From assembly GCA_002069785.1 (NCBI GenBank), contig MWCA01000019.1, positions 736-64,735 on the forward strand: a stretch of 64,000 bases of DNA. Reading direction: 5' to 3'. The notes under the pieces were generated by a model. It was not told the origin of the DNA. It saw nothing but the letters and a program-made list of their open reading frames with translations, and ran no database searches. The position numbers were made by a program, and so were the translations under genes. This stretch comes from Lentisphaerae bacterium ADurb.Bin242. Its GTDB lineage: Bacteria; Verrucomicrobiota; Lentisphaeria; Victivallales; UBA1829. Shown one piece after another: positions 9,295 through 45,023 of this stretch; position 1 is the stretch's first letter; each line of letters begins with the position of its first letter.

Positions 9295-9295
9295 G

Positions 9296-9325
9296 CAGGC
9301 GGGCTTCGGCCATTTGGCCTGTTTT
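9296..9325. terminator. possible bidirectional terminator hairpin in the 30-nt gap between convergent genes
   Basis: CAGGC (9296-9300) pairs with GCCTG (9317-9321), followed by TTTT. The stem is short. Confidence 0.3.
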
Positions 9326-11337
9326 CACGGAGTCTTCTTTTCCGTTGCAGCGGAAGGTTTGACCACCGAGAAAACGGTGTCCCGGCGGGGATCTCCTTTA
9401 TCGTTCATCCCGTCGTATCCGACGGAATAAAGGCGGTACCCCTCCTGCTCGATGACGGCCTCCGGAGAGTTATTTCCCGAGCGGAGAGGTACATCCTGTT
9501 TGATTTTGCCGTGCTGATAAAAGAACGGTTTTCCGGTAAAGGGATCGACCGGCATTTTTTCGAGGTTGAGTTCGGAGAGACTTTCCGGCGGTCTGCCGCC
9601 GTGCGCCCGTTTGTATTTTTCGATTTCCAGCGCCAGCAGACACATCCGCAACTGCGCGGCAATGCCGTTGGTTTTCTTATAGGAGCCGGCAATGGCGGGA
9701 AACAGCATTCCGGTCAACCAGGCGAACGGGGGCATGTTCCCCTTATTAATTTCGAATCGTGGATTATCGAGCTCTTTTTGAATCTGGTAATAATCCCGTC
9801 CGGTCTGAATGATCCGGATCAGTTCCAGCCAGTTGTTCCCCATGATAAGACCGTCGTTCATGAGAATATAATACACCAGAAAGTTTGCATATCGCTGTAT
9901 CCGGTTTTCATAGATCAACTGTTTGGATGAATAGGGAGTACCCCTCTGAAGAAGAGTAACCCACACATCCAGCGTCAGCGCCGATTCGCCCCGGAATGCG
10001 CTGTCGGCGGATTCGAAGAAATGCTTTTCTCGTCCACGGTACATTTCGGCAAGACGGTCCAGATCGGCGTCCGTGAGGATTCCGGAGCCCAGCATATATT
10101 CGACGGCTTCCAGATGGAGGGCTTCGCTGGCGATTTCCACCAGCATGGAAATAATCCAATCCGGATATTTCTGGGTGTTGTTCTGGAAATCCATGGAGAG
10201 CCGGAGCAGGCGCATGGCTTCCGCACGATCGTTCCGGTTGACCGCGTCAACGATCCGCAGACAATAGATTTGGGCGGCCGTCCGCAGACAGCTCTGTTCC
10301 GGCAATAAAATGCCGCAAAGCATTTCGTCATACTTCCTCGGATAGCGGAGCAGTTTGTTTTTCCGGGCCAGGGAATCGGTTTCGTCGATGTACTTCCGGA
10401 TGGAGGGTTCCCGAAGAGCTTTGGAAAGAGCATTCCGTTTTTCAGACCACTCGTATGGCTTGCGTCCGAAGAAGTCCTCTCCCAGCTTCTCCGGAGGCGT
10501 TTTACCATTTTTAAGCGCTTGGGTCTGGGCATCCACCCATGCCGTGAAATCCTTGTCCGGTTCGGTCCCTCGATAATAGAGCGCTTTGGAATCGGCGCGG
10601 GTCACGGGCGCCTTGACTGACCGCAGTTCCGCGATGAGTTTCGCTTCCCGCTTTTCCACATTTCGAATCGTCAGAAAAGCGGTTGTCAGGTAAATCAGAA
10701 ATATGACGCCGACGGTAACCCCCATCGCCTTCGCGGTTCTGGAAAAGGCAATGCCGGTCAGTGTCCGGGATAAAATCACGATCAATATGAAATAGAGCAG
10801 ATACCCCAGCGCAATCCAGTCGGAATATTTTGCATACAGGGGAAAATACGGCAGGGTGAAAATGATGCTGCCGGGAAAACAGAAAAATATAACTCCATCC
10901 AGAATCAGTCCCAGCGCGGAGGTTCCCGCGGCCAGCGTCATCAGAAACGGAACGGGCGGCGCATCCGGAAGCTTTTTGCGTCTCCACGCCAGAATCAGGT
11001 AGACCGCCGGAAGAAGAAAAGTTCGGAGTCCCGGAACCAGCAGAAGCCAGAGTGTGTTCGGCATCCGTGTGAATTTTTCCGGGAAAAACTTCAGGTAGAG
11101 TTCTTGAAGCATCCGAATCTGTTTTTCCGCATACAGAAATAGCGGAATCAGGAGGAGGAGCGCCAGCACCAGAAGATTGCCGTATAACAGAAACGGGGCG
11201 TTTTTCATGGCGGTTGGACTGAAAAACCAGTCCCACTGCTGCTGGAACGTCAGGATGAAATAGACCGGCAGGAGAAGGTCGAGAAACACCATGAGCGCCA
11301 GCGCGGAAACGAACGGGTTGAAACGGTCCTTCATCAC
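9325..11337 (-). CDS. hypothetical polytopic membrane protein with a large C-terminal soluble domain
   Basis: The N-terminal ~230 aa contain multiple hydrophobic helices. The C-terminus ends GYRLYSVGYDGMNDKGDPRRD, resembling the C-terminal motif of GspG-type pseudopilins. No family recognised. Confidence 0.55.
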   Translation of the reverse strand: MMKDRFNPFVSALALMVFLDLLLPVYFILTFQQQWDWFFSPTAMKNAPFLLYGNLLVLALLLLIPLFLYAEKQIRMLQELYLKFFPEKFTRMPNTLWLLLVPGLRTFLLPAVYLILAWRRKKLPDAPPVPFLMTLAAGTSALGLILDGVIFFCFPGSIIFTLPYFPLYAKYSDWIALGYLLYFILIVILSRTLTGIAFSRTAKAMGVTVGVIFLIYLTTAFLTIRNVEKREAKLIAELRSVKAPVTRADSKALYYRGTEPDKDFTAWVDAQTQALKNGKTPPEKLGEDFFGRKPYEWSEKRNALSKALREPSIRKYIDETDSLARKNKLLRYPRKYDEMLCGILLPEQSCLRTAAQIYCLRIVDAVNRNDRAEAMRLLRLSMDFQNNTQKYPDWIISMLVEIASEALHLEAVEYMLGSGILTDADLDRLAEMYRGREKHFFESADSAFRGESALTLDVWVTLLQRGTPYSSKQLIYENRIQRYANFLVYYILMNDGLIMGNNWLELIRIIQTGRDYYQIQKELDNPRFEINKGNMPPFAWLTGMLFPAIAGSYKKTNGIAAQLRMCLLALEIEKYKRAHGGRPPESLSELNLEKMPVDPFTGKPFFYQHGKIKQDVPLRSGNNSPEAVIEQEGYRLYSVGYDGMNDKGDPRRDTVFSVVKPSAATEKKTP

Positions 11338-11533
11338 AGCCCCCTTTGTTGAAAATCCGGTTCCGGTTCAATATAGACCGCTGTTTCCGCGAAGTCAATT
11401 CCGCGCCGGAAAAAATCTGGACATCCGTCCCGGAAATCCATTGTGCGGAGGGGTGGAAATGAAAAAGATGAACTCCGGGAAGAAGGAACCATTCCGGGAA
11501 ACGAGTTTCATCCGTGCCGGGGAAGGAAACGGA

Positions 11534-12436
11534 TTATTTCTTGACCTGCGGGAAGGTATCGACGGCTTTCTGCGCACATTCCCGGAGAAATTTCGCATCC
11601 TCCGGAGCGATTTCCTTCGGAACATACCGGATCTCGGAGGTTTTTCTGCCGTAAAGCATTGCAAACCAGACACATCCCTGCATATAGGCCCCGCGCCGGT
11701 TCATATGGGTGGTGTCCGTGTTCAGTTTCTGTTCGCCGCTTTTCTTGTCTTTGCTCCAGCGGCTCTGTCCGACGACATCCCCGGAAGAATCAGGAAGGGC
11801 CGGAGGCTTCAGTTCCTTGAGCTTTTCCGGGGAAAGCGGCTGGAAGGGTTTCTTTTCCCCTTCGCGGCTGATCTGAACGGCAAGGCCGGACGGAATCACG
11901 CGGAATTGATATTTTGCCGCAAGGTCCGTATAGTTCTTCGTGAGACGGTTGTACATTTCTTTCTGATCGATCTTCCAACCGGTCAGGCGGGACGAATCAC
12001 TGCGGTAGGACCAGGTCTGCTGAATCACGATTTCCGCCTGCGGCGCATGTTTCCGGATCAGCTGGATCAGGTTTTCCGCATACGGCTGGTAGCTTTCGGG
12101 CTTCCAGCTTTCCGGGCTGGCCTGCTGGATGGTGACGACGTCCCATTTCTCTTTGGTGAGCATGTCGACCAGATTGGCCTTTTTTCCGCTGTAGGGCTTG
12201 TGGGCCGGGTCCTTCATGGATTGTTCATACTCTTTCCAGTGTTTCTCGAGGGAACATCCCCCGATGTTCGCCCGGTCGATCTTGAGGGAACAGTCCGGCA
12301 CGGATTGGACGATCTGTGTCAGCGGCTGGACCACGCTGTCGGCAAAACTGTTGCCGATGGTCAGGATTTTGATTTCCTTCGCCCCGAGGGAGAAGGCGGC
12401 GGCAAGCCCCAGAAAAGCGGCTGCGGTTCGTTTCAT
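11534..12436 (-). CDS. secreted SGNH/GDSL-like hydrolase (DUF4886-type)
   Basis: Signal peptide MKRTAAAFLGLAAAFSLGA, then IKILTIGNSFADS (GDS(L)-type block I). AAAGGA Shine-Dalgarno 7 nt upstream. Confidence 0.6.
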   Translation of the reverse strand: MKRTAAAFLGLAAAFSLGAKEIKILTIGNSFADSVVQPLTQIVQSVPDCSLKIDRANIGGCSLEKHWKEYEQSMKDPAHKPYSGKKANLVDMLTKEKWDVVTIQQASPESWKPESYQPYAENLIQLIRKHAPQAEIVIQQTWSYRSDSSRLTGWKIDQKEMYNRLTKNYTDLAAKYQFRVIPSGLAVQISREGEKKPFQPLSPEKLKELKPPALPDSSGDVVGQSRWSKDKKSGEQKLNTDTTHMNRRGAYMQGCVWFAMLYGRKTSEIRYVPKEIAPEDAKFLRECAQKAVDTFPQVKK

Positions 12437-14801: not shown

Positions 14802-15454
14802 ACCCGTATCGGAACAGATTCACATTGATCGAGCTCCTGGTCGTGATTGCGATCATCGCCATCCTGGCCGGAATGCTTCTGCCCGCGTTGAACCAGGCGA
14901 AGGAAACGGCCCGGAGCGTTCAATGCATCAACAATCTCAAGCAGCTTTCCCAGGGCGTGATCATGTATACGGACGACTACGCCGGGTGGATGCCGCCGCT
15001 CCAGAAGCCCGGCGGCGGATCGCCTTTCTGGGGAGAAACCATTTCCAAGGCCGGTTTCATCAATCCGAAAATCGCCAACTGCTCGAACTTGAAAAAGAGC
15101 AACTTCTACAGTTGGGGATACGCGTGGGAAAACACCTATGGCGTCTTCTACAATTCCCTTTTCGTCGACGGCGGGATCAACTATCCCCGGGCGTGCAAGA
15201 CGAACAAGCCTTCGGCCACCGGTTTCTTCGGGGATTCCGGCATCAAGGGGAGCTGGGCCATGAAGTATGTCATCTATGCATGGGAGTCGACCGGCACGGC
15301 CAACATCATGCTCCGGCACCGGAAGCTGGCGAACGTGGTGATGCTGGACGGCCATGCCGAATCGGTTCCCCGGCAGAAGATCTCAAAGCTCTCGGCCACC
15401 CAGGGACCCTATTATCTGCTGCTGAATGAAAACACCGTGGTCTATGTGCCCTGA
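14798..15454 (+). CDS. prepilin-type N-terminal domain protein, DUF1559 / H-X9-DG family (pseudopilin-like)
   Basis: [36 protein letters not shown] and C-terminal [13 protein letters not shown] (H-X9-DG). ATGA overlap with the LacI stop; AAAGGAGG Shine-Dalgarno 6 nt upstream. Confidence 0.85.
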
Positions 15455-22912: not shown

Positions 22913-23752
22913 TCACTCAAAGTAGTCGCCGGCGCCGCTGTCGGTATTGAACCCCAGGGAAAAAGCGGAGTAAATGCTGCCCCCGACCACGACATCCCGG
23001 ATGAACCGCGGTTGAACGTGCCCATCCATATAGGAAACATTGGCTTTTCCCTTGAGCCACATGGGATACGGCGTGCCTGTCGACCCGTTGAGGCGCTCAT
23101 CCGGAGCGCCATGCCGGAAACTCATTCTTGTCACCGCGCCAAAGCCGTTGACGTCTCCGGTCCAGTTGTGGTCGGCCGAAAATATCGCCTGCGACGCCTG
23201 GGTGAATGTGGAGAGCTTGTGTCCCCGTTTGCCGCCGGCGGCGGACGTGCCCCGATATCCGCAGAGATATGAATTGGCTCCATAGTGGGTTCTGGTGAAG
23301 GAGACGGCCGAACTGAGGCTCGCATTGGCCGGAAGTCTTTCAGCGGGACAGTTGAAGGAGCCGTTTTCAAATTTGTACGTGCCCGTGGACGAATTCAGTA
23401 TCACCAGACCGAGTTTCGCGCCGTACGTCGGAGCGTTCCAGTATCCGCCCAGCTTGCCGTACCAGAAAGTGAGGAGGCTGTAGTCCGTACAGCGGACCGG
23501 CGGGAGCCATTCCCGGTTCGAGTCGCAATACAGGAGGCACGCCGTGACTTGCGCCTTGAGATTATTGACGCACGAAATGCTCTTCGCCGTTTCTCTCGCC
23601 CGGTTCAGCACCGGCAGGAGCATTCCCGCGAGAATCGCGATGATCGAAATCACGACCAGGAGTTCAATTAATGTGAAACCGCTTTTTTCCCCGGATTCGG
23701 TACAGGCTCCGGAAAGGCGCCTCGAATTTCGAATTTCCCACGTCCGTTTCAT
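22913..23752 (-). CDS. prepilin-type N-terminal domain protein, DUF1559-like (pseudopilin-like)
   Basis: ..[34 protein letters not shown]; C-terminal [13 protein letters not shown] at 23752 (the track ORF starts at the GTG at 23758). Confidence 0.8.
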
Positions 23753-27490: not shown

Positions 27491-28255
27491 ATGAAAAACA
27501 CATCCTTGAAGAAGCATGAAACGGGAAGGAAAATCCCGTTCGGGCGGAACTTTACATTGATCGAACTCCTGATCGTGATTGCGATCATCGCCATTCTGGC
27601 GGGAATGCTGCTGCCCGCCCTGAACGCGGCGAGGGAAATGGGGAAATCCGCCTCCTGCATCAGCAATCTCAAAAGCCACCATCTCGCATCGGAACTGTAT
27701 TCATCCGATTTCAGCGATTACCTTATCTGTCTCGATTACCCCAATACGGACGGCACTTACGGCAAGGTGTTCTGGATGACTCAGTTCAATAATATGGGAT
27801 ATCTTCGTTATTCAAAGGCTTATTCCTGCCCCTCCGAAACCATAATTCTGAATGGAAGCGACAAGGGCAAGGTCTTCTACGGGCTTGTCGCCGGAACTTT
27901 TGGCGATCAGCTCACCGCAGTCAACGGCGGAATCAAACGAGGTGTCCTTTCAAGGTCGGTGAAATCCCCGAATACAGTCATATTTGCCGATACAGCCAAT
28001 CCAAAGGGAAGCATCCCGGAAAGGACAAAGAATGGATATGCGATAAACAATCATGGGAGCAGCATGCCTGTTCTCCAGAATCTCAATCAGGATTCCTATG
28101 GGGCGTATCTCAGACATTCCGGAGGAAAATCCGCCAATGCCGTGACATTTTCAGGCTCGGCGACCTCCTACAAAAACAGGAACAGGCAGCTGCGTTACAC
28201 TGAACCGTTCATGCCATGGCGCACGGCTTCCACCGGTGAGTGGAACAGCTTTTAA
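27491..28255 (+). CDS. prepilin-type N-terminal domain protein, DUF1559-like (pseudopilin-like)
   Basis: ..[34 protein letters not shown]. The H-X9-DG motif is degenerate ([14 protein letters not shown]). ATG at 27491 has an AAGGAAG Shine-Dalgarno. Confidence 0.8.
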
Positions 28256-30637: not shown

Positions 30638-32284
30638 CTACTCGGTCAGGAATTTGTCCAGATTCCGGAGTCCCCGTTTGACGGCTTTTTCCACAGTTGT
30701 GTCCGAGGGGATGATTTTGGAGGCTTCCTCTTTGAGCGTTTTCAGGATGGACGCGTTGAGGGTAAGAAAATCCCGCGCCGCCGAAAGAAGGTTGACGGAC
30801 GGCTGGTTGAGGGTGCCCTCGAAGTTCAACGGCACTTTGATTCCGCAGATGATGAGCAGGGTTTTGATGTTCAGATTCCCGGTGGGCATGTCCAGCGTTC
30901 CCTGAATGGATTCCAGTTCGATGTCTTTCCCGCTCAATGAAATGTTCCGGATGTTCAGGACGCCATGGTCCGCTGCGAGATCCGCGGTCACTTTGTCGAA
31001 GTCCAGGTTCTTCCGGCCCGTGACGGCCTCGTTGATGGAGGCAAGACCGGCGTTTACCTCTTTTTTGAAATCCAGTTTCAGCCTTGCCATATTGATGAAG
31101 GAGGGCAGGGCTTCCAGCGGGATCATGACCAGCTTGAAGAGACGGCTCCTGCTGTCCAGGTCGACCGGGAACGACATGGCCTCCGCTTGAAGCTTGAGTT
31201 CCCCGGTGAGTTCGGACTGGAGGGATTCCGCGGTGAAGTTGCGTCCTTCGAAATGGAAATCGGCCAGCCGGACGGTCAATTCCGCTTTTTTATCCTGAAA
31301 CAGGAAAGAGAGCAGCGGGCCCGCATTGAAGTCCTGAATCTTTCCCTTGCATTGGAATTTTTTGCCCAGTTCGCCGGACAGCGTGAGCTTGCCGAGGGTT
31401 TGTTTGTCCTTGAGGAGGAACAGTTCCGAATTCTGGAGCCGGAAGGTGCCGTCTTCCAGGAATTTCCCGTCCGTGGAAAGATTCAGGCGGAGTCCCATTT
31501 TGGCGGGGAAAGTATAGTCGTTCAGCAGGACCAGGTCCATGACCCCGGTGTCCAGCTTGACATGAAACGCATCCAGGCCGTAATCGTCATCCAGCACGAA
31601 AACGGCGTTCATCCGGAAGGGAAGCGAATGGATGTGCAGGGGGGCGTTCGGGGTCGGGAACGTCTTGATTTCCGCATCCGCTTCCAGCGTGCATTTTTCC
31701 CGGGGGAGGAGGCGGTCGCCCTGAAGACGGCGGATGGTCCACTGCTGCCGGACCGCGTTCAGGGGATCGGTCAGCACAAATATGACATTTTCCGCCTTGA
31801 AAAAATGCATGACCAGCACCGGCTCCGTCGCGGGAGATGCGGAAGATTCCGGCGACGGGGCGGAGGAGGATGCGGAAGGCGTTTCGGCTGGCTGGCTGCG
31901 GATAACCAGTTTCATGTTTGAAACATGGGTGTCCTTCAGGTCGATCGTGCCCTTGAACAGTTTCCCGAGACGGACTCCGGTCGTGGCGGTCCCCACGTCG
32001 ATGACCGTTCCGCTTCCGTCGGAATAATGAAAGTTCTTCACCCCGACCCGGAACGGGACAAAGCTTTCGATGCGCAGATCGGAGGCTTCCATCTTCGCGT
32101 CGGTCAGGCTCGCCGCGAGCGGCAGCCAGAACGAACGCAGTGCATAGGGCGTCAGAGCGGAAACGGCCGCCAGGCAGACGGAGAGGATCCCGATGCAGAA
32201 AATCCAGAGAAAAAGCTTCCACTTCCTGTTTCGTTTCGAAACGGGTGCGGAAGCCGGAACGGAGCCTTCCCCGCCGTTTTTCAT
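30638..32284 (-). CDS. AsmA-family-like membrane-anchored protein
   Basis: One N-terminal TM helix, a long beta-rich repetitive body, and a C-terminal PLNFEGTLNQPSV motif like the AsmA C-terminus. ATGA overlap with the upstream ftsQ-like gene. Confidence 0.5.
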   Translation of the reverse strand: MKNGGEGSVPASAPVSKRNRKWKLFLWIFCIGILSVCLAAVSALTPYALRSFWLPLAASLTDAKMEASDLRIESFVPFRVGVKNFHYSDGSGTVIDVGTATTGVRLGKLFKGTIDLKDTHVSNMKLVIRSQPAETPSASSSAPSPESSASPATEPVLVMHFFKAENVIFVLTDPLNAVRQQWTIRRLQGDRLLPREKCTLEADAEIKTFPTPNAPLHIHSLPFRMNAVFVLDDDYGLDAFHVKLDTGVMDLVLLNDYTFPAKMGLRLNLSTDGKFLEDGTFRLQNSELFLLKDKQTLGKLTLSGELGKKFQCKGKIQDFNAGPLLSFLFQDKKAELTVRLADFHFEGRNFTAESLQSELTGELKLQAEAMSFPVDLDSRSRLFKLVMIPLEALPSFINMARLKLDFKKEVNAGLASINEAVTGRKNLDFDKVTADLAADHGVLNIRNISLSGKDIELESIQGTLDMPTGNLNIKTLLIICGIKVPLNFEGTLNQPSVNLLSAARDFLTLNASILKTLKEEASKIIPSDTTVEKAVKRGLRNLDKFLTE

Positions 32285-33108
32285 GGAAGCACCGGCTGTT
32301 GCGGAGAAGCCATCGTGATGACCGACATGTTCTTGAACAGAAGATTGATGTTTCTTCTCGGACTGTTGGTTTTGCGGATCTCTTCCAGCGCGGAAAGCAG
32401 TTTGCAGAGATTCCCGGAAATGTCTTTTTCCGGCATGACGACCCGGAAAAGCTCGCCCTCGCTGAAATTGTTCTTATAGTAGATCGCACAGGAGAGCTGA
32501 CCGGGGACAAGGATGGAGATGCTGGCGATCTTGATGTCCGGATAGGTTGTCTTGGTCAGCATGATGAGCTCGACGGCGCTTTCCAGCTTCCGGATACAGG
32601 TGCCGGGCGCATACTGGGTGATGTTCTGGAGCCCGACGATGACCGGAAGACTGTAGGAGATATCCATGCAGCGGTTCTTGTTCATCAGGATGGATTCGGC
32701 ATCCACGACGAACGGCAACTTCGGACTGTTGACCAGGGCGATGGGAATCCGTTCCAGAATGGAGATCGTCAGGGTGTCCGGAAGGATTCGCGTGATCTTC
32801 ACCTGCTGGATGGAGGGTTCCCTTTGCAGCAGACGCCCGCGGAGTTCCCCCGGGTCCAGGCTGAACAGATTCGTGAGGCCCGGCTGGATGCGGAGGATTT
32901 CGCAGAGGAGGTCCTTCTTGTCCTGCCAGAATCCCTTGCTTTCCACACGGACGTCGGTGATGGTGAAGCGCTGGTTTCCGGAAAACATGCTGGAAGACGT
33001 CTGCCAGACCAGCCCGACCGACCCGCCGGTCAGCAGAAAGATCAGGAGGACGGCCAGCCAGATTTTCACAGACCTTTTTTTAAGAAACTCGAATTCCGGT
33101 AATTTCAT
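32281..33108 (-). CDS. ftsQ: FtsQ/DivIB-type cell division protein (POTRA domain)
   Basis: One TM helix followed by a POTRA-like segment FTITDVRVES..LFSLDPGELRGRLLQREPSIQQVKITRILPDTLTISILERIPIALV. Confidence 0.65.
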   Translation of the reverse strand: MKLPEFEFLKKRSVKIWLAVLLIFLLTGGSVGLVWQTSSSMFSGNQRFTITDVRVESKGFWQDKKDLLCEILRIQPGLTNLFSLDPGELRGRLLQREPSIQQVKITRILPDTLTISILERIPIALVNSPKLPFVVDAESILMNKNRCMDISYSLPVIVGLQNITQYAPGTCIRKLESAVELIMLTKTTYPDIKIASISILVPGQLSCAIYYKNNFSEGELFRVVMPEKDISGNLCKLLSALEEIRKTNSPRRNINLLFKNMSVITMASPQQPVLP

Positions 33109-33131
33109 CGAAGCCTCGTTTCAGTGACGGA

Positions 33132-36392
<3,261 letters not shown>

Positions 36393-36859
36393 GGGGCACA
36401 TTCCAATTCTGGGGTATTTTTACAGCTTCCGGGAATTCCGGCATGCTTCCGGAGTGATAATATATCACCGGATTTGTTTTTTTTCCACAGGGAATTTTTG
36501 AAAATGGTAATTTTCCGGAAGGAAAGGCGGTTTTGCGCCTGATCCGGACGGGTTCCGGAATGCAACCCGGAATCCGTTTCTCCCTTTTCCGGATCGGAAT
36601 GCGTGCGGAAACCTGTCCCCGCGGAGGAACTTCCTGTCATCCGGTTGAACCCGTCGTATGTCCGTATCAATGTCATTTTCGTTGTTCCGCCCTCCGCGAA
36701 TGTTACCGTATACAATTTTTTTCAAATTCCATAAATTTCACGGACCACGTACATTGCATAAAAAGAAAAGCAAGGTGGATACCGTAAAAACTTGAAAAAT
36801 TTGAATAGCCAGAATATATTGGCTGAATATTCTTCGACAATCATAGATGGAAAGCAATC

Positions 36860-36973
36860 ATGAATTACTTCTATATATTGTGGGCAATCGTCAATCTTCT
36901 TCTGTTACTTTTGTTTCTGCTTTCGGCTGACGGCTTGTTCCGGAAACCAGAAAGAAATTACTCTTTCACGTAA
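36860..36973 (+). CDS. possible 37-aa hydrophobic mini-protein
   Basis: MNYFYILWAIVNLLLLLLFLLSADGLFRKPERNYSFT has a single TM-like helix. No clear Shine-Dalgarno. Confidence 0.2.
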   Translation: MNYFYILWAIVNLLLLLLFLLSADGLFRKPERNYSFT

Positions 36974-37016
36974 ACCGCCTCTAAAAGTCAAACAATCATG
37001 AACCAGGATTTGTAAA

Positions 37017-37163
37017 ATGCAAAAACCATATCGGTATTTTCCAATTTTTCTGATCTGCATATTTTTATTTGCCGGGATTTCCTGCGGAGAGGAAAACCAA
37101 ACGACTTCAGACCGGCATCAACTCGACTCGATGGGGATATCTCTTTATTCTTTGTATGCATAA
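37017..37163 (+). CDS. possible 48-aa signal-peptide/lipoprotein-like mini-protein
   Basis: MQKPYRYFPIFLICIFLFAGISCGEENQ.. has a hydrophobic N-terminus ending in Cys. The lipobox is non-canonical. Confidence 0.2.
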   Translation: MQKPYRYFPIFLICIFLFAGISCGEENQTTSDRHQLDSMGISLYSLYA

Positions 37164-37217
37164 AAAAGATATCCCCCAAAAAAGGTGTTATTATGGCGTA
37201 ACAGATGGAGAAGAACG

Positions 37218-38240
37218 ATGAAATTTTTATTGTTTTTTTTGGTTTTATCGGTAGCAGGATTCTGCATTTTCCTGACTATACATGTCCTGCCTGAAAATAA
37301 TAATGAACTAAATCTATTAATCCAGGAATATCAGAAAGCTGATTCAAATAAGAATATAGAAAAGCTAAAAAAAATTTCCATTCAATTTTCGGAGCTTGCT
37401 TCAAAAGCCAAAGGATACCGTCAGAAACTTTATATTGGTATGCAATTTTACCTTGATGGACAGATTGCTGAATATGCTAATGATGTCGAAAAAGAAAAAT
37501 CCTTTTATACGAAGGCATACCCTTATTTGTATTCGAAGAATACTGCAATTTGGGATATAAAGTTGTATATCGCTAGAAAATTATCTGAAATATATATGAA
37601 AGAAAAAAAATATGAATTGATGGATCGCTGGCTTGCGAGAATCGATTCCGTATTGAAAGAAATGGATTCTTTAAAGGTGGATGGGCGCAACGAAATCACA
37701 GCAGTTTATCATAAAGAAAAAGCATTTATTCTTTTAGATTCCAATGACATATCACGAGCTACACGAGAAGCTGAAATTTCATGGGAAATTTATCAGAAGC
37801 ATCCTCAAGATATTTCTCGAACCACTTTACGACATCTTTTTTACTTGAAAGCAAAAATTGCAATGGCGCGGAAAGAATACCTTGCCGCCATCAACTATAT
37901 CTCTTTTGCCTTAAAAAACTGGATCGATGAAGACGGACTTTTTCCATCTGGTTTTTACAAGATATTTGTTGATGCTCATCTGAAAAATGGAACTTCTGAG
38001 GAAGCAGTTCAAACGCTGAACCACATCCTTACCCACCCTCTGTTATATAAGCATGACAGAGCCAGAGCTGAATATATGAGTTTGTATTATTTAGCACAAA
38101 TTTACCAAAAGAACGAAAAAAATGCTCTTTCAAGAAAATATGCTGAACAAGCCATGCAATATTCTTTGCCTGTCGAAATCCGTGAAAACTTAAAATCTAT
38201 TTTTACTCCCCAAGAAGAATCTTATCACGCTCGGCATTGA
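37218..38240 (+). CDS. hypothetical membrane-anchored helical-repeat (TPR-like) protein
   Basis: Very AT-rich codon usage. N-terminal TM/signal anchor MKFLLFFLVLSVAGFCIFL, then repeated amphipathic helical pairs. GGAG Shine-Dalgarno 7 nt before the ATG at 37218. Confidence 0.55.
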   Translation: MKFLLFFLVLSVAGFCIFLTIHVLPENNNELNLLIQEYQKADSNKNIEKLKKISIQFSELASKAKGYRQKLYIGMQFYLDGQIAEYANDVEKEKSFYTKAYPYLYSKNTAIWDIKLYIARKLSEIYMKEKKYELMDRWLARIDSVLKEMDSLKVDGRNEITAVYHKEKAFILLDSNDISRATREAEISWEIYQKHPQDISRTTLRHLFYLKAKIAMARKEYLAAINYISFALKNWIDEDGLFPSGFYKIFVDAHLKNGTSEEAVQTLNHILTHPLLYKHDRARAEYMSLYYLAQIYQKNEKNALSRKYAEQAMQYSLPVEIRENLKSIFTPQEESYHARH

Positions 38241-38913
38241 CTTTAAAAATTTTCCACCATGCCCCATTTGTGCCCAGTGCTTTTTCCGCTTCATCGATGA
38301 TCCGGAGGGCATAATTCCGGACTTTTTCCATGATGCCGGTCGTCATTTTGAAAAATTCAAAATACACGCCGATGATTTTTCCGGCGATCGGCAACTCTTT
38401 GTGAAATCCGATGTCCTCAAGAAGCGTGATGAGTTCATCCATCGAAGCCTTTGCCTGGAACATCGCTTCCACTTCCTGCCGGGGAGTGATGTCGTTTCTG
38501 GAAAGCCGGCGTTTTTCCGCCTCCGCCCTGCGTAAAAGGTTGGCTGTTCCCATAACGATTTCCATTCCCCGGGTGAGTTTCGCTGTCTCCTGCTGGACTT
38601 TCTGGACAACGTCCATGATTCCCCAAAGTTTCCTGCTGACGTCCAGAAGGACATCGTTCTTATCAAGAAACCGTTTGATTTCCAGTTCCGACAAAGCGCG
38701 CTTATAGGCGCTCCGTGAATTGACCGGAATATAGCAGGCTTTAAAAATTTTCTCCGCGGTGAGAGCATTTTTGTCCGAACGGTGCACCTGAATATATTCA
38801 CAGATTTTTTTGTATGTATTCAAATCGGTAAACATCCGGGCCGCTTCTTTCTCGATGAGTTTACAGAATGGAACAATGTTTTTGTCATTCAGGGGGACGT
38901 TATCGTTTCCCAT
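38203..38913 (-). CDS. hypothetical all-helical protein (236 aa)
   Basis: GGAGG Shine-Dalgarno 6 nt before the ATG at 38913, 29 nt downstream of the preceding gene. No recognisable domain. Confidence 0.5.
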   Translation of the reverse strand: MGNDNVPLNDKNIVPFCKLIEKEAARMFTDLNTYKKICEYIQVHRSDKNALTAEKIFKACYIPVNSRSAYKRALSELEIKRFLDKNDVLLDVSRKLWGIMDVVQKVQQETAKLTRGMEIVMGTANLLRRAEAEKRRLSRNDITPRQEVEAMFQAKASMDELITLLEDIGFHKELPIAGKIIGVYFEFFKMTTGIMEKVRNYALRIIDEAEKALGTNGAWWKIFKVNAERDKILLGE

Positions 38914-38942
38914 TTCCAACCTCCATGGATTCCAGGTTCATT

Positions 38943-39404
38943 TCAAAAAGTCGCCGACATTTTTGCATTCAGGAGCAGTTTCCATCCCCGCAACTCAGGC
39001 CGCAGGGGAAGTTTTTCCGACGAGATTAATTGAACAGGGATATGATTCAGTTTCAACGGCATGCCCGGAACCGATCCTTTCAGGGCTGTCATGACTTTTT
39101 CATGCGTGTCCACGGCGGCGGTCTCGCAAGCTGGCACACCGTTCGTCTCCGCCAGAAGGAAAACATGATATTCGACGTCCTGAATGAGACCGCCGAATTG
39201 CGGATCGGCAAAAACATCTCCGGAAGAGACCACCGCCGCGGGAAACCTTGCAAGATCGTCCATGACATTGAAAAGCTCCGAGAAGATGGGAACTCCATAC
39301 AATGTCCGGACCTCGCTCAACAGAGGATTCCCCTGTGAATCCGTCAGAGCGGAGAGTTGCGCCTTGATGTCGTTGAGCGTTTCTTCCATTTTCGGAAAAT
39401 TCAT
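38943..39404 (-). CDS. hypothetical protein resembling phage Mu gp37/DUF1834-type tail-associated proteins
   Basis: AAAGGAG Shine-Dalgarno 7 nt before the ATG at 39404. The pattern MEETLNDIKAQLSAL..LLSEVRTLYG..ARFPAAVVSSGD resembles the N-terminal layout of that family, judged from memory only. Confidence 0.45.
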   Translation of the reverse strand: MNFPKMEETLNDIKAQLSALTDSQGNPLLSEVRTLYGVPIFSELFNVMDDLARFPAAVVSSGDVFADPQFGGLIQDVEYHVFLLAETNGVPACETAAVDTHEKVMTALKGSVPGMPLKLNHIPVQLISSEKLPLRPELRGWKLLLNAKMSATF

Positions 39405-39764
39405 TTTCAGACTCCTTTCAAACCATAAAATGATGTCGATATGCGACCGGAATGATCGCATTTCCATATTATATGCAGAGCGTCAAATAAAAAAATGCGG
39501 ATTTTCCGGAAAAGAAGATGTGGAAGCCGCAAGTGAAAAGAAGAAAAGCAGCGGATTGTGTGCTGAATGAGGCAAAACGGAAATTATGAGAAAAAATGAA
39601 AAAAGCTTTTATTCGTAAAAGAACGGATGAATCAAATTCCTCCGGGATAACCGACATTACCGGTACGGGAGAGAAGGCCGCGCAGTTCTTCCGCGCGGCT
39701 TTCGGCGGGACAGTCTGCCGGATCGACGCCGGTGCCGTCGAGCGGAATTTTTGTCGCGCCGGAA

Positions 39765-42647
39765 TTACAACCCGTCGGATGAAAATTGAAAAATGGTCGT
39801 CTCCAGCTGATCTTCGATCCTTCCTTTTCCGAGAGGCCGCGTTTCCCATTTGCGTCCGGGACCTTCCACTTTTTCTTCAGGAAGGAAATTTCCGAACCGG
39901 AGATTTTCCCGGGACGGTGCCACGATCCGGAGGGCGCTGCCGACCGGCTGGGCGGAAACGACAATCCCCCGCTTCAGTTCATCGCCCGACCACAGGAGCT
40001 TGCCGGAAGGCGAACGCTGGCAGGCCATGGAAACCGGCTCGTAAACAACCGTACCGTCGCGGCAGAGGGAAGGCGGCAGTTCGATCCGGAGAGTCCGTTT
40101 TTGAGCAAGGTCGAAGTTGAAATAGCTGACCAGCAGTCCGTCATGGAGCCGGTGGACCCGGCAACGCCAGAACGTTTCCGGAGGATTGCCGAAATAGACC
40201 CAGGGAGCCGCGAGGGAATCATCCCGGGGACGCTGTTTTTCCGGAATGAAATAATCATGGAAAGAGCATTCGCCGCTGATGTCCTTCCCGTCAAGGTAAT
40301 AGGCTTCCGTCCGGGCAAGTTCATGGGCCAGACGCATGTATTCCAGTTGGGTCAGCGCATCGACGGGCGCCCCTTCGAGAAGGATCCCTTTGGCTCCGGA
40401 CGAAGCATGTGCCAGCGCGCTGATCCGTGCGAGGCGCGGCCAGTCGTCGAGCCCGAGGGGACGGCGCTGGAAGTCTGCCAGAAGACGGCGCGACACCCAA
40501 GACCCCGCGTAGAAGGCAAGTCCTCCCACCGAACCCGTTTTCGGAATCACCGGGATTTTCAGTTCTTTTACGGAAACGGCCACCTGTTCATAGGCTTTGA
40601 GCCCGGAAAACAATGCATCGGGCAGGACAAAGTCAAACTCCGCTTCCTTCATCAGACGCGGATCTTCACAGAAAAGGGTTCGCCCGCGTCCCAGTCCCGG
40701 AAACACAAAATCGGTCTCGATATATTCAAAATCCATCCCGCTTACTATCTTTGGATTTCCGGCGCGCGCCATTTCCTTGAACATTTTGAACATCAGCGCC
40801 GACTGGTAATGACGGAAATAAATCCATTCCTTCGTATATTTCCGCGCCAGTTGAAGGGGCGTCAGCCCGGAAAGGGCCTCCGGATCAAGGCGGGCGAACG
40901 CGGCGAAATTTTTCCGGCAGTCCGCACAGTAACAACCATGGAACGTCTTACCTTCCCAGTCATGCCACATATAGTCGATTTCCTTGAAACGCGCAAAAGC
41001 CTCTTTGAGCCGCCGGTGGAGCGCGGTGTCCGTCCGTAAAAGATAACTGGGGCAAAAGCTGTGCTGCGGATTGTTGCCCTCGTACCTCACCTTGCCGTTG
41101 AGGAGGGTCCAGACCGAACCGGGCACGGGATTTTTCAGGTTTTCCATGGCTTCCTTGCGCAGGAAGTCATAGGGCGCGTGAAGCCTGAATCCGAGGCCGC
41201 GGAGGTGTTTTTTGAGTTCCGGCATTTCCGGCTTCATGTAGGGAGCCGTCTCCGGGCCGGAAAGCACTGTGATTCCCTGCGCCTTGAACATCGCAAGATA
41301 GGCTTCGCGCTGGGCCGCATCCGCCCAGACCAGATGCCGGAGCGGAGTGTGGGAATACCAGAGTCCGATTCGTTTTGGAACGTCCCGGTTGGGCGTCCAC
41401 GGCAGGATTTCACCGTGTCCGGTAAAGAGTTCGCCCGGTTCCGTTCCCGGTTTCTGAAGCTGCCAGCGGTAGATGAACGGCGTGGCGGCGGACACTTCGG
41501 GGGTCTTCAGATACAAATACAGCTGATGATGTTTGATGCTGTCGAAGAGATTCTTGTCGCAGACGAAGGTGATCGGATCGGGCGCCTGGAGAAGGTAGCG
41601 GCGTCCGGGACGGCCTTCCAGCGAAATGGGTTCCGTCTGGAAGGAGGTCTGGACGGAGCGCGGAATCCAATAGTTGAAAACGACGGCCTTCTGAAGCTCG
41701 ATCCCTGCCGGAAGGTCCAGCCGGAACCGGAGTTCTTTCATCGGCGGGGCGCCGTCTTTCCGCTGATAAAAGAGAACCGCCATCGGATTGGGAAAATTGC
41801 CGAGCAGGAACATTTTCCGGTCGTCGCGGTACAGCGTGGGGTCCCAGAAGACCTGAATGGCTCCGTCCAGCCCGGTTTTCCGTTTGGGCTTCACCGATGC
41901 GTCCGGATACAACGCATTCAGGGATTTTTCCGGGTCCGCGCCGACAAACAGAAGTTTGAAACGGAAATCGAGGGTGTCTCCGGGCTTGACCTCCTGAATT
42001 TCTCCGAACGGTCCCTTGTTGAGTTCGTATCCGAAACGGCAGCGTCCGGGCATCTTCCGGTAATTGCGGAAAATTCCGGCGCCCGTCTTGCGGTTGTTTT
42101 CCACGATCACCAGGAGGCCGCGTCCCGAGGAGCGGTCGAAAATCCCGTGAAAGAAATCGTAACTTTTATCGAGGTTGGCGAGAAGCCCGGCGGTGTCGGC
42201 AACATTCAATTCCCATTCTTCGCTGTGAAGCACGGCATCGGCGGAAGGCGCGCCGGAAACGACCGGCATGCGGAGAATGCCGATCCGCAGCGGCTGTTTG
42301 ATGGTGAGGCGGAGCCGGACGTCCGCCGTGTCGGAATTTTTTTCCAGCCTCAAGGTCTGGACGCAGGAATAGGCGGTTCCTTCCCGATGGATCGTAATTT
42401 CTTCGCCTCCGGCGGTTGCCTTTTTCCGGGTCGAAATAACCACGGATTTTTCTTCGATGGCGGTCGGGTGGAGAAATTCGAGCAGTTTGATTTCCCGGAT
42501 CAGATTGGAGGCGCCCGCGGGCGTCACTTCAACGAGGGTTCCATCTTCGACGGCCAGCCGGACACGGCCGTTGTCAAGCGTGAATTTTTCCGCCGCCGGG
42601 AGCGATCCCAGCGCGAGGAGGAGAGCAACGGCGGAAAAAAAATTCAT
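39765..42647 (-). CDS. large secreted protein, glycan-enzyme-like with CxCxxC motif, function unknown
   Basis: Signal peptide MNFFSAVALLLALGSLPAAE; GCYCADCRKNF motif. ATGA overlap with the upstream LamG-like gene. The track ORF extension to 42926 is out-of-context read-through. Confidence 0.6.
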   Translation of the reverse strand: MNFFSAVALLLALGSLPAAEKFTLDNGRVRLAVEDGTLVEVTPAGASNLIREIKLLEFLHPTAIEEKSVVISTRKKATAGGEEITIHREGTAYSCVQTLRLEKNSDTADVRLRLTIKQPLRIGILRMPVVSGAPSADAVLHSEEWELNVADTAGLLANLDKSYDFFHGIFDRSSGRGLLVIVENNRKTGAGIFRNYRKMPGRCRFGYELNKGPFGEIQEVKPGDTLDFRFKLLFVGADPEKSLNALYPDASVKPKRKTGLDGAIQVFWDPTLYRDDRKMFLLGNFPNPMAVLFYQRKDGAPPMKELRFRLDLPAGIELQKAVVFNYWIPRSVQTSFQTEPISLEGRPGRRYLLQAPDPITFVCDKNLFDSIKHHQLYLYLKTPEVSAATPFIYRWQLQKPGTEPGELFTGHGEILPWTPNRDVPKRIGLWYSHTPLRHLVWADAAQREAYLAMFKAQGITVLSGPETAPYMKPEMPELKKHLRGLGFRLHAPYDFLRKEAMENLKNPVPGSVWTLLNGKVRYEGNNPQHSFCPSYLLRTDTALHRRLKEAFARFKEIDYMWHDWEGKTFHGCYCADCRKNFAAFARLDPEALSGLTPLQLARKYTKEWIYFRHYQSALMFKMFKEMARAGNPKIVSGMDFEYIETDFVFPGLGRGRTLFCEDPRLMKEAEFDFVLPDALFSGLKAYEQVAVSVKELKIPVIPKTGSVGGLAFYAGSWVSRRLLADFQRRPLGLDDWPRLARISALAHASSGAKGILLEGAPVDALTQLEYMRLAHELARTEAYYLDGKDISGECSFHDYFIPEKQRPRDDSLAAPWVYFGNPPETFWRCRVHRLHDGLLVSYFNFDLAQKRTLRIELPPSLCRDGTVVYEPVSMACQRSPSGKLLWSGDELKRGIVVSAQPVGSALRIVAPSRENLRFGNFLPEEKVEGPGRKWETRPLGKGRIEDQLETTIFQFSSDGL

Positions 42648-43258
42648 TTCCCGGAATCCTTCATGTTGACTTTTTGAATACAGAACGCCGTGTTGTTGTA
42701 TCCGCAGACGCTGACAATGATCGGTTCGGCAAGAGGAGCGGGTTTCGGGACTTCCAGAAGGAGTTTGCCGTCGATTGCGGCCGTGACTTTGCCGTCCGCC
42801 CAGCGGATGGCGAGCGTGTGCGCTTCGCCTTTTTTCCATTTCCCGATGTTCAGATTGACCGTTTTCCCGGCGACGGATGCGCTGAGTATCTGATAGGTCG
42901 GCGCTATGACCGAGTTGAAAGCCCACTGCGTTTTGTCCTGCCAGACAATTTCCAGAAGGGTCATGCTTTCCGTCTTTTGCGCATCCTTGTAGAATCCCAT
43001 GTCCGCAATCGGGGCGACGGTTACTTCAATACTTCCCGTTTCCGCGGCGAATTTCGGAGGATTCTGTATTTGGAAACCGGCATATTTCCCGGGTTCCGCG
43101 GCGATGATGCCGCCGTTCTTTCCGGCGGGAAGAATCTCGATGTTTCGCATCCTTTTCCGGAAGGAATCCAGTTTTTCAGCGCCGGCCGTGAAGTCGATTT
43201 CGGTTCCCCGGACACCGAGGGCAGCCGCGAACAAAAGGATCGGGAGCAGTTTTTTCAT
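42644..43258 (-). CDS. secreted concanavalin/LamG-like lectin-fold protein
   Basis: Signal peptide MKKLLPILLFAAALGVRG; GEAHTLAIRWADGKVTAAIDGKLL, typical of a LamG jelly-roll. Confidence 0.5.
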   Translation of the reverse strand: MKKLLPILLFAAALGVRGTEIDFTAGAEKLDSFRKRMRNIEILPAGKNGGIIAAEPGKYAGFQIQNPPKFAAETGSIEVTVAPIADMGFYKDAQKTESMTLLEIVWQDKTQWAFNSVIAPTYQILSASVAGKTVNLNIGKWKKGEAHTLAIRWADGKVTAAIDGKLLLEVPKPAPLAEPIIVSVCGYNNTAFCIQKVNMKDSGK

Positions 43259-43308: not shown

Positions 43309-43932
43309 TCAATCTTTGCCGGGCGTCAGCATCGAGGTTTTGACGCTGTTTTTTCTCACGGCGCGCGCACTGCCGTCCGCAAACAGGGCGTTGGTCTGCT
43401 TGCTGTGGCGGAACGCCAGATAATTGGCCGCGGTCCACTCGTTCAGGAGATAGGAGACCGGTGAAACCGCCCCCGTTCCGTGATCGCCCGTGATCAGCGT
43501 ATCCGAGTGGACTTTGGTCGCTTTCAGGCTGTTCGATGCATCGATGATGACATTGTAGTTGAACGCATAGTCGGTTCCGATCTCGCCCTGGTTGTGTTTT
43601 GTCTCCGACGGACAGTACTGGGTATCCCGGTTGTAAAAGGTATATCCGACCGGAAGCTTGAAGTAGTGATGCCGGAGGTATCTGGTGAAGTAAATCGACG
43701 GGGCTCCGTAAGGCCACGGAGGATAGTAGCACATGGTGGTCGGATAAAATTCGCGATTGTCGTCGATATACTGGAAAAAAACAAGGCCGTTCTGCTTGAG
43801 CTGTCCCAGGCATTTGATGGCCTGCGCGGAATTTCTAGCTCGGTTGAGGGCGGGCAGAAGCATTCCCGCCAGGATGGCGATGATCGAAATTACAATGAGA
43901 AGTTCTATCAATGTGAACCGTTTCCACTTCAT
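43309..43932 (-). CDS. prepilin-type N-terminal domain protein, DUF1559 / H-X9-DG family (pseudopilin-like)
   Basis: [34 protein letters not shown]; HSKQTNALFADGS (H-X9-DG). ATGA overlap with the LacI stop; GGAG Shine-Dalgarno 8 nt upstream. Confidence 0.85.
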   Translation of the reverse strand: MKWKRFTLIELLIVISIIAILAGMLLPALNRARNSAQAIKCLGQLKQNGLVFFQYIDDNREFYPTTMCYYPPWPYGAPSIYFTRYLRHHYFKLPVGYTFYNRDTQYCPSETKHNQGEIGTDYAFNYNVIIDASNSLKATKVHSDTLITGDHGTGAVSPVSYLLNEWTAANYLAFRHSKQTNALFADGSARAVRKNSVKTSMLTPGKD

Positions 43933-45023
43933 TTTTGTGTCTCCGTTATTTTTGTGTTTTTGGTGGATTTGGATGAATGATTCCGTTCGGAGGAATTTTC
44001 CGGGACTTTTTTCCGGTGGATGAACCATGTGGGAACCCGGGTGTCGGACACCTCCCCGATGCGGCATTTTCCGGTGAGATGGCCGATCAGAAGTTCCACG
44101 GTGCGCCGGGCCATTTCCGCGCGGGGGACGGCGATGGTGGAACAAGTGTTGTAAACGGGATTGTTGTCGTAGCCGATGACGGCGGGCCGGTTCGGAATGC
44201 GGCGGTATTCGAATTCGCGTTCCAGCATGTTGGCCATGGTGTCGTTGCTGCAGAAGACCGCGTCCAGCGACTCGTAAAACTTGTCGTCCACCAGTTTGCG
44301 GATGGAAAAAACATCCTGCACGTGAAAGAAATTGTCCTCCCGGCAGAGGCCGCGTTCCCGGAGCACTTTCCGCAGAACATTCAGGATTGCTTCGGAGTGC
44401 ATCCGCTCCGGCTCGAACAGGAGTCCGATACGGCGGCGACGGGACTTGAGCAGAAAATCGACCGCCTGCCGGTATCCGGTCTCCGGGTTCGGGTAAAACA
44501 TGGCAGGGGTTGCGGAACTGGTGAAGTTCATCGTGACATACGGAAAACGGGCGGCGGACAGGGCGGGAAAAAGCGGCCCGAAAAATTCGGGCGTAAGAAA
44601 AACCGCACCGTCCGTATGGGCGAAATCCAGTTTTCCGGTAAGGAAGGAGACATTTTCATCCTGGACCGGCTCGAGCTTGACGTCATATCCGTGTTCACGT
44701 GCTTTCCGGATGACGCTGAAAATCACTTCCCATTGTGTCAGGCGCACGTGGGAATCGAAGTCCAGCGAACGCGGCGTCTGTGTGAAGAACGGCGGAAGGA
44801 CCAGCGAGATCGTCTCATGACGGCGGATCCGGAGGCTCCGGGCGACCGGGTTCCCGCGGTATCCGCAGCTTTCGGCACATCGGCGGATCTGTTCCCGGAC
44901 CTTCGGGCTGATCCGTCCGCGCGGCGGAACGGAAAGCGCGCGGGAGACCGTCGAGACCGAAACTCCGCATTTTTCCGCAAGGATTTTCAGGGAAACCAGA
45001 TTGTCGGGCTGTCGGGACGGCAT
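43929..45023 (-). CDS. LacI-family transcriptional regulator
   Basis: HTH LKILAEKCGVSVSTVSRALS plus a sugar-binding-type domain. Confidence 0.8.
   Translation of the reverse strand: MPSRQPDNLVSLKILAEKCGVSVSTVSRALSVPPRGRISPKVREQIRRCAESCGYRGNPVARSLRIRRHETISLVLPPFFTQTPRSLDFDSHVRLTQWEVIFSVIRKAREHGYDVKLEPVQDENVSFLTGKLDFAHTDGAVFLTPEFFGPLFPALSAARFPYVTMNFTSSATPAMFYPNPETGYRQAVDFLLKSRRRRIGLLFEPERMHSEAILNVLRKVLRERGLCREDNFFHVQDVFSIRKLVDDKFYESLDAVFCSNDTMANMLEREFEYRRIPNRPAVIGYDNNPVYNTCSTIAVPRAEMARRTVELLIGHLTGKCRIGEVSDTRVPTWFIHRKKVPENSSERNHSSKSTKNTKITETQK

Follow-up and report, generated by a model that had tools for sequence, protein, structure and literature searches.

A stretch of 64,000 nucleotides (nt) from Lentisphaerae bacterium ADurb.Bin242 (contig MWCA01000019.1, positions 736 to 64,735; hereafter the window) carries an AT-rich islet between carB and a glycan locus. 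The islet holds a three-gene module, and the first gene encodes a 153-amino acid (aa) protein which, as judged from its structural model and its remote homologues, has the tail-terminator fold and a phage ancestry. This terminator gene has been removed from the virion operon, has its own conserved upstream element, and is joined to a gene for a non-phage helical protein. It is kept in several Lentisphaeria, where a fast-diverging exported protein with tetratricopeptide repeats (TPR), or resembling a TPR protein, is its usual neighbour. The stand-alone setting of the gene, the recurrent three-gene layout with its gradient in guanine plus cytosine (G+C) content, the upstream box, the purifying selection, and the divergence of a strain contig at the AT-rich part are the observations on which we build. 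The reading we favour, with somewhat less than even confidence, is that of a small phage-derived accessory module, with a domesticated tail terminator as its core, that would protect the cell population against Mu-like phages through tail-assembly interference or exclusion.

The features of the islet, in window coordinates, are as follows (RBS, ribosome-binding site; ORF, open reading frame):

39480..39497, minus strand: candidate promoter or operator, made up of a T-tract and the TTTGACGC box; 83 nt upstream of the terminator-like gene
38943..39404, minus strand: tail-terminator-like protein of 153 aa, outside any virion gene set; leads the operon; RBS AAAGGAG
38203..38913, minus strand: all-helical partner of 236 aa; follows the first operon gene at a distance of 29 nt; RBS GGAGG
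37218..38240, plus strand: exported or membrane-anchored helical-repeat (TPR-like) protein, 340 aa; convergent, with a 38-nt overlap with the 3' end of the operon
37017..37163, plus strand: mini-ORF, 48 aa; signal-peptide-like start (...FLFAGISCGEE)
36860..36973, plus strand: hydrophobic mini-ORF, 37 aa; has a gene call in the sister assembly; no family match
36700..38278, no strand: strongly AT-rich, apparently strain-variable segment containing the TPR-like gene and the two mini-ORFs

The gene layout, the Shine-Dalgarno sites, and the two hydrophobic mini-ORFs lie where a preliminary description of this DNA had placed them. The start of the 153-aa gene has been corrected to the ATG at 39404, instead of 39401.

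The tail-terminator-like protein

The 153-aa protein has few relatives. A word-seeded search of 5.8 billion non-redundant proteins returned one 99% and one 89% relative. An exhaustive HMMER search of 1.84 billion representatives, with a query profile made of three close sequences of the 153-aa type, added eleven matches. Ten of these are remote homologues of 141–154 aa (E 4e-13 to 9e-4), and the eleventh (P0011), an 855-aa repeat protein, was rejected as spurious. There is no paralogue within the window.

The AlphaFold2 (AF2) model of the protein, obtained with an alignment that includes the remote homologues, has a predicted local distance difference test score (pLDDT) of 88 and a predicted template modelling score (pTM) of 0.84, and it shows the alpha/beta fold of the tail terminators. 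The top Foldseek match in the PDB is the phage Mu terminator (9khy_1; E 5.7e-8, template modelling (TM) score 0.71). Further PDB matches are T5 p142, lambda gpU, the pyocin R2 collar, the diffocin and monocin terminator/collar proteins, and a gene transfer agent (GTA) protein. In these comparisons the fold is the same, with TM scores of 0.5–0.7 and a probability of 1.0. The top 45 PDB matches at E ≤ 1e-3 are all terminator, collar, or neck proteins. At the same threshold, 413 predicted viral structures match, and the named ones are tail terminator or tail completion proteins. The term phage-tail-like, used in the preliminary description, is therefore borne out by the structure and can now be specified as tail terminator. 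In phages, the tail terminator forms a hexameric ring that caps the finished tail tube and enables head joining. Terminators contact the last tail-tube ring and form the head-joining surface.

Two of the remote homologues, P0018 (locus L012) and P0013 (locus L013), sit in Mu-like structural modules, where they hold the terminator position between connector and tail. The gene order in both loci is terminase, Portal_Mu, Phage_Mu_F, protease, capsid, Phage_Mu_Gp36, one gene, and the homologue, which two or three small genes separate from the tape measure (TMP_3). The window gene differs from these terminators in lying outside a virion or tailocin gene set, in its own box, in its non-phage helical partner, and in its long branch. 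No portal, capsid, tube, tape-measure, or sheath gene was found within 10 kb on either side. Counting the window, at least six chromosomal contexts contain an intact copy of the terminator-like gene and no further phage gene closer than 10 kb. A simple distance tree groups the phage-type terminators (34–60% identity) and places the chromosomal ones on long separate branches (23–31%).

The three proteins of the module gave nothing above noise in Pfam, PHROGs, PADLOC, and NCBIfam, and the earlier view of an islet of foreign composition outside any described system agrees with this. PADLOC-DB 2.0 gave nothing beyond noise: ZorC at E 0.0035 across 98 residues, and an unspecific TPR model that was matched by the TPR protein of locus L014, described below. 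By tblastn, there is no match to the 153-aa and 236-aa proteins in GenBank phages, or to the 153-aa protein in PLSDB plasmids. IMG/VR, searched with the operon proteins and their alignments, and the JGI metagenomes, searched with the helical protein, also returned nothing. The genes had been described as orphans; this holds for the family libraries only, since the two operon proteins have relatives.

Recurrence and composition of the module

Outside the window, the terminator-like gene has been found in the following chromosomal loci (MAG, metagenome-assembled genome):

L014 (51-kb contig): gatB, 146-aa homologue, 231-aa protein, convergent 343-aa TPR protein, LacI-type regulator
L015 (Lentisphaeria MAG GCA_017613255.1): GATase_5 gene, 154-aa homologue, 245-aa protein, convergent 298-aa TPR protein
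L004: operon after a lipoprotein-like gene
L011: homologue after a methionine-aminopeptidase-type (Peptidase_M24) gene, with a different downstream gene
L016 and L017: homologue alone beside a convergent 1150-aa orphan

Because the partner proteins are homologous and the third genes all encode exported proteins, the layout of a terminator-like gene, a helical protein gene, and a convergent gene for an exported TPR or TPR-like protein is present at three unrelated chromosomal sites, namely the window, L014, and L015. The discrete accessory module suggested earlier is supported by this identical three-gene layout next to gatB and a LacI-type gene in L014 and next to a GATase_5 gene in L015. The preliminary description had set conserved synteny with host-like composition against its own reading. 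What was found is a layout that is kept, but at different loci and with a composition that is not that of the host, which does not refute that reading.

The second gene of the operon encodes the helical partner. Among the 5.8 billion proteins, its matches at E ≤ 0.01 are itself, one 78%-identical protein, and one fragment. It is homologous to the 231-aa protein of L014 (28% identity, E 7e-14) and to the 245-aa protein of L015 (phmmer, 1e-10), both of which occupy the same position. No member of this helical family is found in the phage loci L012 and L013. The spacing of 29–30 nt between the two operon genes is kept in the window, L004, and L015. The AF2 model of the 236-aa protein is poor (pLDDT 43) and all-helical, and the earlier assignment as an all-helical protein is consistent with the secondary structure of this low-confidence model. 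There is no family match and no PDB match in a profile search of PDB sequences, and the same family libraries and PDB search detected no enzymatic or pore-forming domain. Within the helical protein, the segment LPI..II..YF.FF is amphipathic and conserved.

The third gene encodes the 340-aa protein on the plus strand. Its N-terminus, MKFLLFFLVLSVAGFCIFLTIHV, reads as a signal or anchor, so the hydrophobic anchor of the preliminary description is present. In the word-seeded search, no homologue besides itself was found among the 5.8 billion proteins. It has no Pfam match at E ≤ 1 and no PDB sequence match, and hhalign gives only a weak motif-level match to TPR. The same-position proteins of L014 (343 aa) and L015 (298 aa) exceed the TPR thresholds (TPR_12 6e-10, TPR_14 6e-9). 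The L014 protein has a lipobox and the L015 protein a transmembrane anchor; a signal peptide, lipobox, or membrane anchor is thus present in all three. No significant sequence similarity was found among these three proteins. The start of the 48-aa mini-ORF resembles, by eye, the lipoprotein start of the L014 TPR protein, and this mini-ORF is possibly a 5' remnant of an earlier exported-protein cassette.

The exact 8-mer TTTGACGC lies 61–187 nt upstream of the homologous gene, after a T-rich run, in six of six independent chromosomal loci. It occurs twice in L014 and in neither of the two phage loci. Its background is 0.0014 per 200 nt in ~295 kb of strand sequence, and only 1 of 20,000 shuffles had it in at least two of the six regions. 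The stretch 39444–39501, which holds the box, is conserved between the window and L004. We call it a candidate promoter or operator box because it is a post hoc find without a convincing -10 element. Scans with consensus promoters and terminators gave nothing reliable. In L014, an inverted near-copy (CCGTCAAA) lies ~33 nt downstream of the second TTTGACGC box (9934–9981). The pair hints at an operator-like palindrome that would be confined to the L014 lineage.

When the window is compared with L004, the ratio of nonsynonymous to synonymous substitution rates (dN/dS) is 0.15 in the terminator-like gene and 0.14–0.16 in the helical gene. Both operon genes are therefore maintained by selection. 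The helical and TPR proteins of the L014 type form clusters of 283 and 167 members at ≥90% identity, on contigs of up to 157 kb, so the module is common and stable in at least one gut species. The only trace of a mobile element beside any copy of the module is a 66-aa remnant of an IS3-type transposase OrfA (HTH_Tnp_1, E 1.4e-5) in L014 (12339–12539, minus strand), between the TPR and LacI genes. In L016, the terminator-like gene (8083–8520) has the TTTGACGC box and a convergent partner at 8604–12056 (1150 aa, no family match); L017 is arranged likewise. This could be a different partner architecture.

The G+C content of the islet, measured in 300-nt windows, is 0.31–0.40 across 36600–38400 and 0.43–0.53 across 38400–39600. 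It is 0.55–0.65 through carB and returns to 0.52–0.62 past ~39600. The lowest 1-kb window has a G+C of 0.34, against 0.57 ± 0.036 (standard deviation, SD) in the rest of the 64-kb window, a gap of ~6 SD, and outside the islet the 1-kb values are nowhere below 0.468. By gene, G+C and third-codon-position G+C (GC3) are 0.342 and 0.30 for the 340-aa gene (37218–38240), 0.468 and 0.565 for the 236-aa gene, and 0.517 and 0.584 for the 153-aa gene. In carB they are 0.599 and 0.82, and GC3 in the flanking genes ranges over 0.66–0.82. The abrupt drop in G+C that had been noticed by eye is thus confirmed by the sliding windows, with concordant GC3 values.

A similar gradient is seen in the other copies of the module. 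From the terminator-like to the helical to the TPR or TPR-like gene, G+C is 0.52/0.47/0.34 in the window (host 0.56), 0.535/0.41/0.37 in L014 (host ~0.52), and 0.585/0.44/0.47 in L015 (host 0.59). Since the gradient is kept in distant modules, low G+C is taken as a standing property of the distal module genes and not simply as a mark of recent transfer. More generally, a low-G+C islet need not mean recent transfer, as this gradient is kept although the proteins are only ~28% identical.

Contig JAKJHI010000030.1 of the sister assembly (MAG GCA_022703945.1) matches the window at 99.98% identity. The contig L008, which belongs to the same species as the window, is 98.7% identical to the window from 39936 down to 38278, and beyond that point it continues into unrelated AT-rich DNA; L008 is a single short metagenomic contig of 1818 bp. 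The homology of the diverged lineage L004/L009/L010 to the window ends at 38259, and the C-terminal 25–40 residues of the helical protein vary along with the downstream DNA. The left edge of the AT-rich segment (~36700) is defined by composition alone. The AT-rich part appears to be strain-variable, its place being taken by other DNA in a near-identical strain contig. As read from these sequence breakpoints, the islet is a composite of a conserved, moderately atypical operon (~38260–39500) and a replaceable AT-rich part (~36700–38278). The single 2.9-kb insertion proposed in the preliminary description is not supported, since the islet is in two parts and the strain contig breaks at 38278.

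Possible functions of the module

In the mechanism we propose, the terminator-like gene would be expressed alone from the candidate promoter at the TTTGACGC box, together with its helical partner of ~235 aa. A resident, diverged look-alike of the terminator would be made before infection and would perhaps be held or targeted by the helical partner. This look-alike could cap growing tails early or occupy the tube and connector surfaces, leading to non-infectious particles. The targets would be Mu-like siphophages that carry the ancestral gene. The periplasmic TPR protein may add a function at the level of the envelope, such as the exclusion of entry, and the replaceability of this protein is consistent with an arms race. 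A more specific version, in which the terminator copy and the helical partner form a poison subunit that caps or blocks the tails of Mu-like phages and the exported, rapidly replaced TPR protein is a second layer at the envelope, is possible but rather unlikely in our estimate. If it is true, immunity would be achieved by structural mimicry of a virion part and not by sensing or cleaving.

Tail-assembly interference is a proven defence in Tab of the Pseudomonas prophage JBD26 (PMC10884400) and in Tai of phage-inducible chromosomal islands (PICIs), phi80, and P4-like satellites (PMC11364771). The Tab and Tai proteins are small, have no enzymatic domain, are presumably constitutive, and act on a component of tail assembly, which results in tailless particles (PMC10884400, PMC11364771). 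By analogy, their block of tail assembly is the mechanism that may apply to the module. Tab and Tai act against the tape measure or the central fibre. Their genes sit on prophages or satellites together with a counter-defence gene, and they are not described as homologues of virion proteins. The module, on the other hand, is chromosomal and has no prophage or satellite genes; the comparison is made by the descriptions in the papers only.

In Avs15, tail terminators are bound by the TPR-like sensors of a STAND (signal transduction ATPases with numerous domains) NTPase (PMC12803255). The likeness to the module lies in a terminator fold and a TPR-type repeat protein in one functional context. However, the module is without an NTPase or effector domain, and its terminator is encoded by the host, whereas the terminator in Avs15 is the trigger from the phage. 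Because of its export signal, the TPR protein of the module is unlikely to meet a cytoplasmic terminator. The superinfection-exclusion proteins of prophages are exported proteins, for example lipoproteins that block DNA entry. The third gene of the module resembles them in being small, exported or lipid-anchored, fast-evolving, AT-rich, and located beside a phage-derived gene. It differs in that there is no prophage around the module, and the likeness is one of general description only.

Most of the domesticated structural genes known from phages make up complete machines, such as tailocins, gene transfer agents, and contractile injection systems. It would be a different kind of exaptation for a single terminator gene under purifying selection to have kept its fold, gained its own control box, and joined two non-phage partners. 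If interference with tail assembly is true, a host-encoded look-alike of a virion subunit would be a new mechanism of immunity, and it would be found in Lentisphaeria, a phylum of the gut about whose phages hardly anything is known. A literature search brought up no account of a terminator homologue that stands alone on a chromosome beside partners of this kind, which is not proof of novelty.

Several points weigh against a protective module. The protective role, though plausible, is a prediction from the genes. No protein of the module matches the PADLOC models beyond noise, and no known defence gene was seen beside the module in the examined loci, where it is surrounded by housekeeping or glycan-use genes. 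In L011 and in L016/L017, the terminator-like gene occurs without its helical and TPR partners, and therefore the three genes may not work together. A direct interaction is not obvious either, since the TPR protein is extracytoplasmic and the other two proteins look cytoplasmic. The abundance and high conservation of the L014-type module in its species would also fit a role other than defence. Also, the strain variability is read from L008 alone, which could be a chimera.

Some of the same evidence bears on other explanations. The two-gene operon with its tight spacing in the window, L004, and L015 could encode a bait and an effector, similar to abortive-infection or toxin-antitoxin systems, in which the look-alike would bind a phage tail or neck protein and free or activate a harmful helical partner. 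Virion proteins are sensed by many defence systems (PMC11364771, PMC10884400, PMC12803255), and the amphipathic segment conserved in the helical protein would suit such an effector. We nevertheless consider this improbable, as no enzymatic or pore-forming domain has been detected in the 236-aa protein, the model of which is unreliable, and as the terminator-like gene also occurs without the helical partner. Alternatively, the phage ancestry of the 153-aa gene, the atypical composition, and the IS3-type transposase remnant beside the L014 module might point to a Mu-like prophage or satellite that has decayed and of which the islet is an inert residue, with no role in the cell. This is less probable still. 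Intact copies of the gene, with no other phage gene nearer than 10 kb, are present in at least six chromosomal contexts, the dN/dS of the gene is ~0.15, and its conserved upstream box is one that neither phage locus has. The phage loci also have no counterpart of the helical and TPR proteins, and random decay is not expected to leave one and the same set of three genes in three places.

A cellular role unrelated to phages, such as envelope or surface assembly with a re-used terminator fold and the TPR protein as a periplasmic partner, would agree with the abundance and >90% within-species conservation of the L014-type helical and TPR proteins, with the housekeeping and glycan-use neighbours, and with the export of all the third-gene products. 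We give it a slimmer chance than the inert leftover. The distribution is patchy (of 1.84 billion representatives, 12 match at E ≤ 1e-3, one of them the spurious P0011), the divergence is extremely fast (23–31% identity), the codon usage is not that of the host, and the third gene has apparently been replaced at the strain level. The least probable explanation, in our view, is that two unrelated acquisitions abut each other, one being the operon of the terminator-like and helical genes and the other a separate AT-rich gene for an exported repeat protein. The two parts do differ in composition, the breakpoints of the strain contigs fall exactly at their junction, the convergent orientation implies separate transcription, and the three TPR or TPR-like proteins have no significant mutual similarity. 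However, L014 and L015 also have a convergent gene of this type next to the homologous operon, although their genomic contexts differ, and the third proteins are similar in size and in having an export signal, and their genes abut or overlap the 3' end of the operon.

Repeats and neighbouring genes

Signs of mobility were looked for around the module. There is no tRNA in the window and no recombinase family, integrase or transposase, among the called neighbours, in agreement with the preliminary description. The 10-mer AAGAAAAGCA, which had been suggested as a remnant of an att or target site, occurs exactly at 36763 and 39541 and nowhere else; 0.17 copies are expected, and at least two copies were present in 3 of 100 shuffles. 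The pair is given no weight because it was chosen post hoc from a repeat-rich, AT-rich stretch of 3.6 kb, in which there are 48 direct-repeat families, including exact 14-mers. The pair is near chance, its right-hand copy lies outside the stretch common to L004, and it was rejected as an att site. The usual signs of an integrative island or prophage remnant are therefore absent around the module in the window.

A 20-nt repeat at 36501 and 39492 was also rejected as an att site, since its core, TTTTCCGGAA, is over-represented genome-wide. There are 12 copies of TTTTCCGGAA against 0.75 expected, a count reached in no shuffle. The 12 sites are spread over the window, for example at 16645, 26329, 36511, 39502, and 40237. 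This word could be the site of a regulator or a genome-wide word bias. Copies of the TTCCGGAA type are concentrated upstream of carB, at 36427–36604 (repeat families D3, D4, and D7). The leader upstream of carB also contains a 13-pair hairpin (GGACGGGTTCCGGAATGCAACCCGGAATCCGTTT) at 36546–36579. It has no Rfam match, and no RNA family was found by Rfam in 36000–40000. The hairpin may be an attenuator-like element of the carB transcript.

Four stretches of 75–130 nt (14810–14940, 23556–23677, 27551–27625, and 43843–43917) are 79–87% alike. Each codes for the N-terminal methylation motif of the prepilin type (N_methyl, in one case with DUF1559) in a set of paralogues. They were therefore rejected as a mobile repeat, and the motif in such paralogues is typical of the Planctomycetes-Verrucomicrobia-Chlamydiae (PVC) group.

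The glycan locus beside the islet (39765–43258, 43309–45023) begins with genes for secreted proteins of 960 and 204 aa, downstream of a LacI-type regulator. Neither protein belongs to a Pfam or NCBIfam family, and the 204-aa protein gives a weak hint of a trans-sialidase C-terminal domain. No relatives of the 960-aa protein were found in the JGI metagenomes; a homologue, P0099, is present on a 26-kb contig. The 1150-aa protein of L016 is unrelated to the 960-aa protein, and a link of the terminator-like gene to a large neighbouring orphan was therefore rejected. On the other side of the islet, a gene for an FtsQ-like protein (POTRA_1) is located immediately downstream of carB on the same strand (32281–36401), which is an unusual neighbourhood for a division gene. 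This arrangement of carB and the FtsQ-like gene is kept in L006, an 85%-identical contig of an uncultured Victivallales MAG, the nearest other genome.

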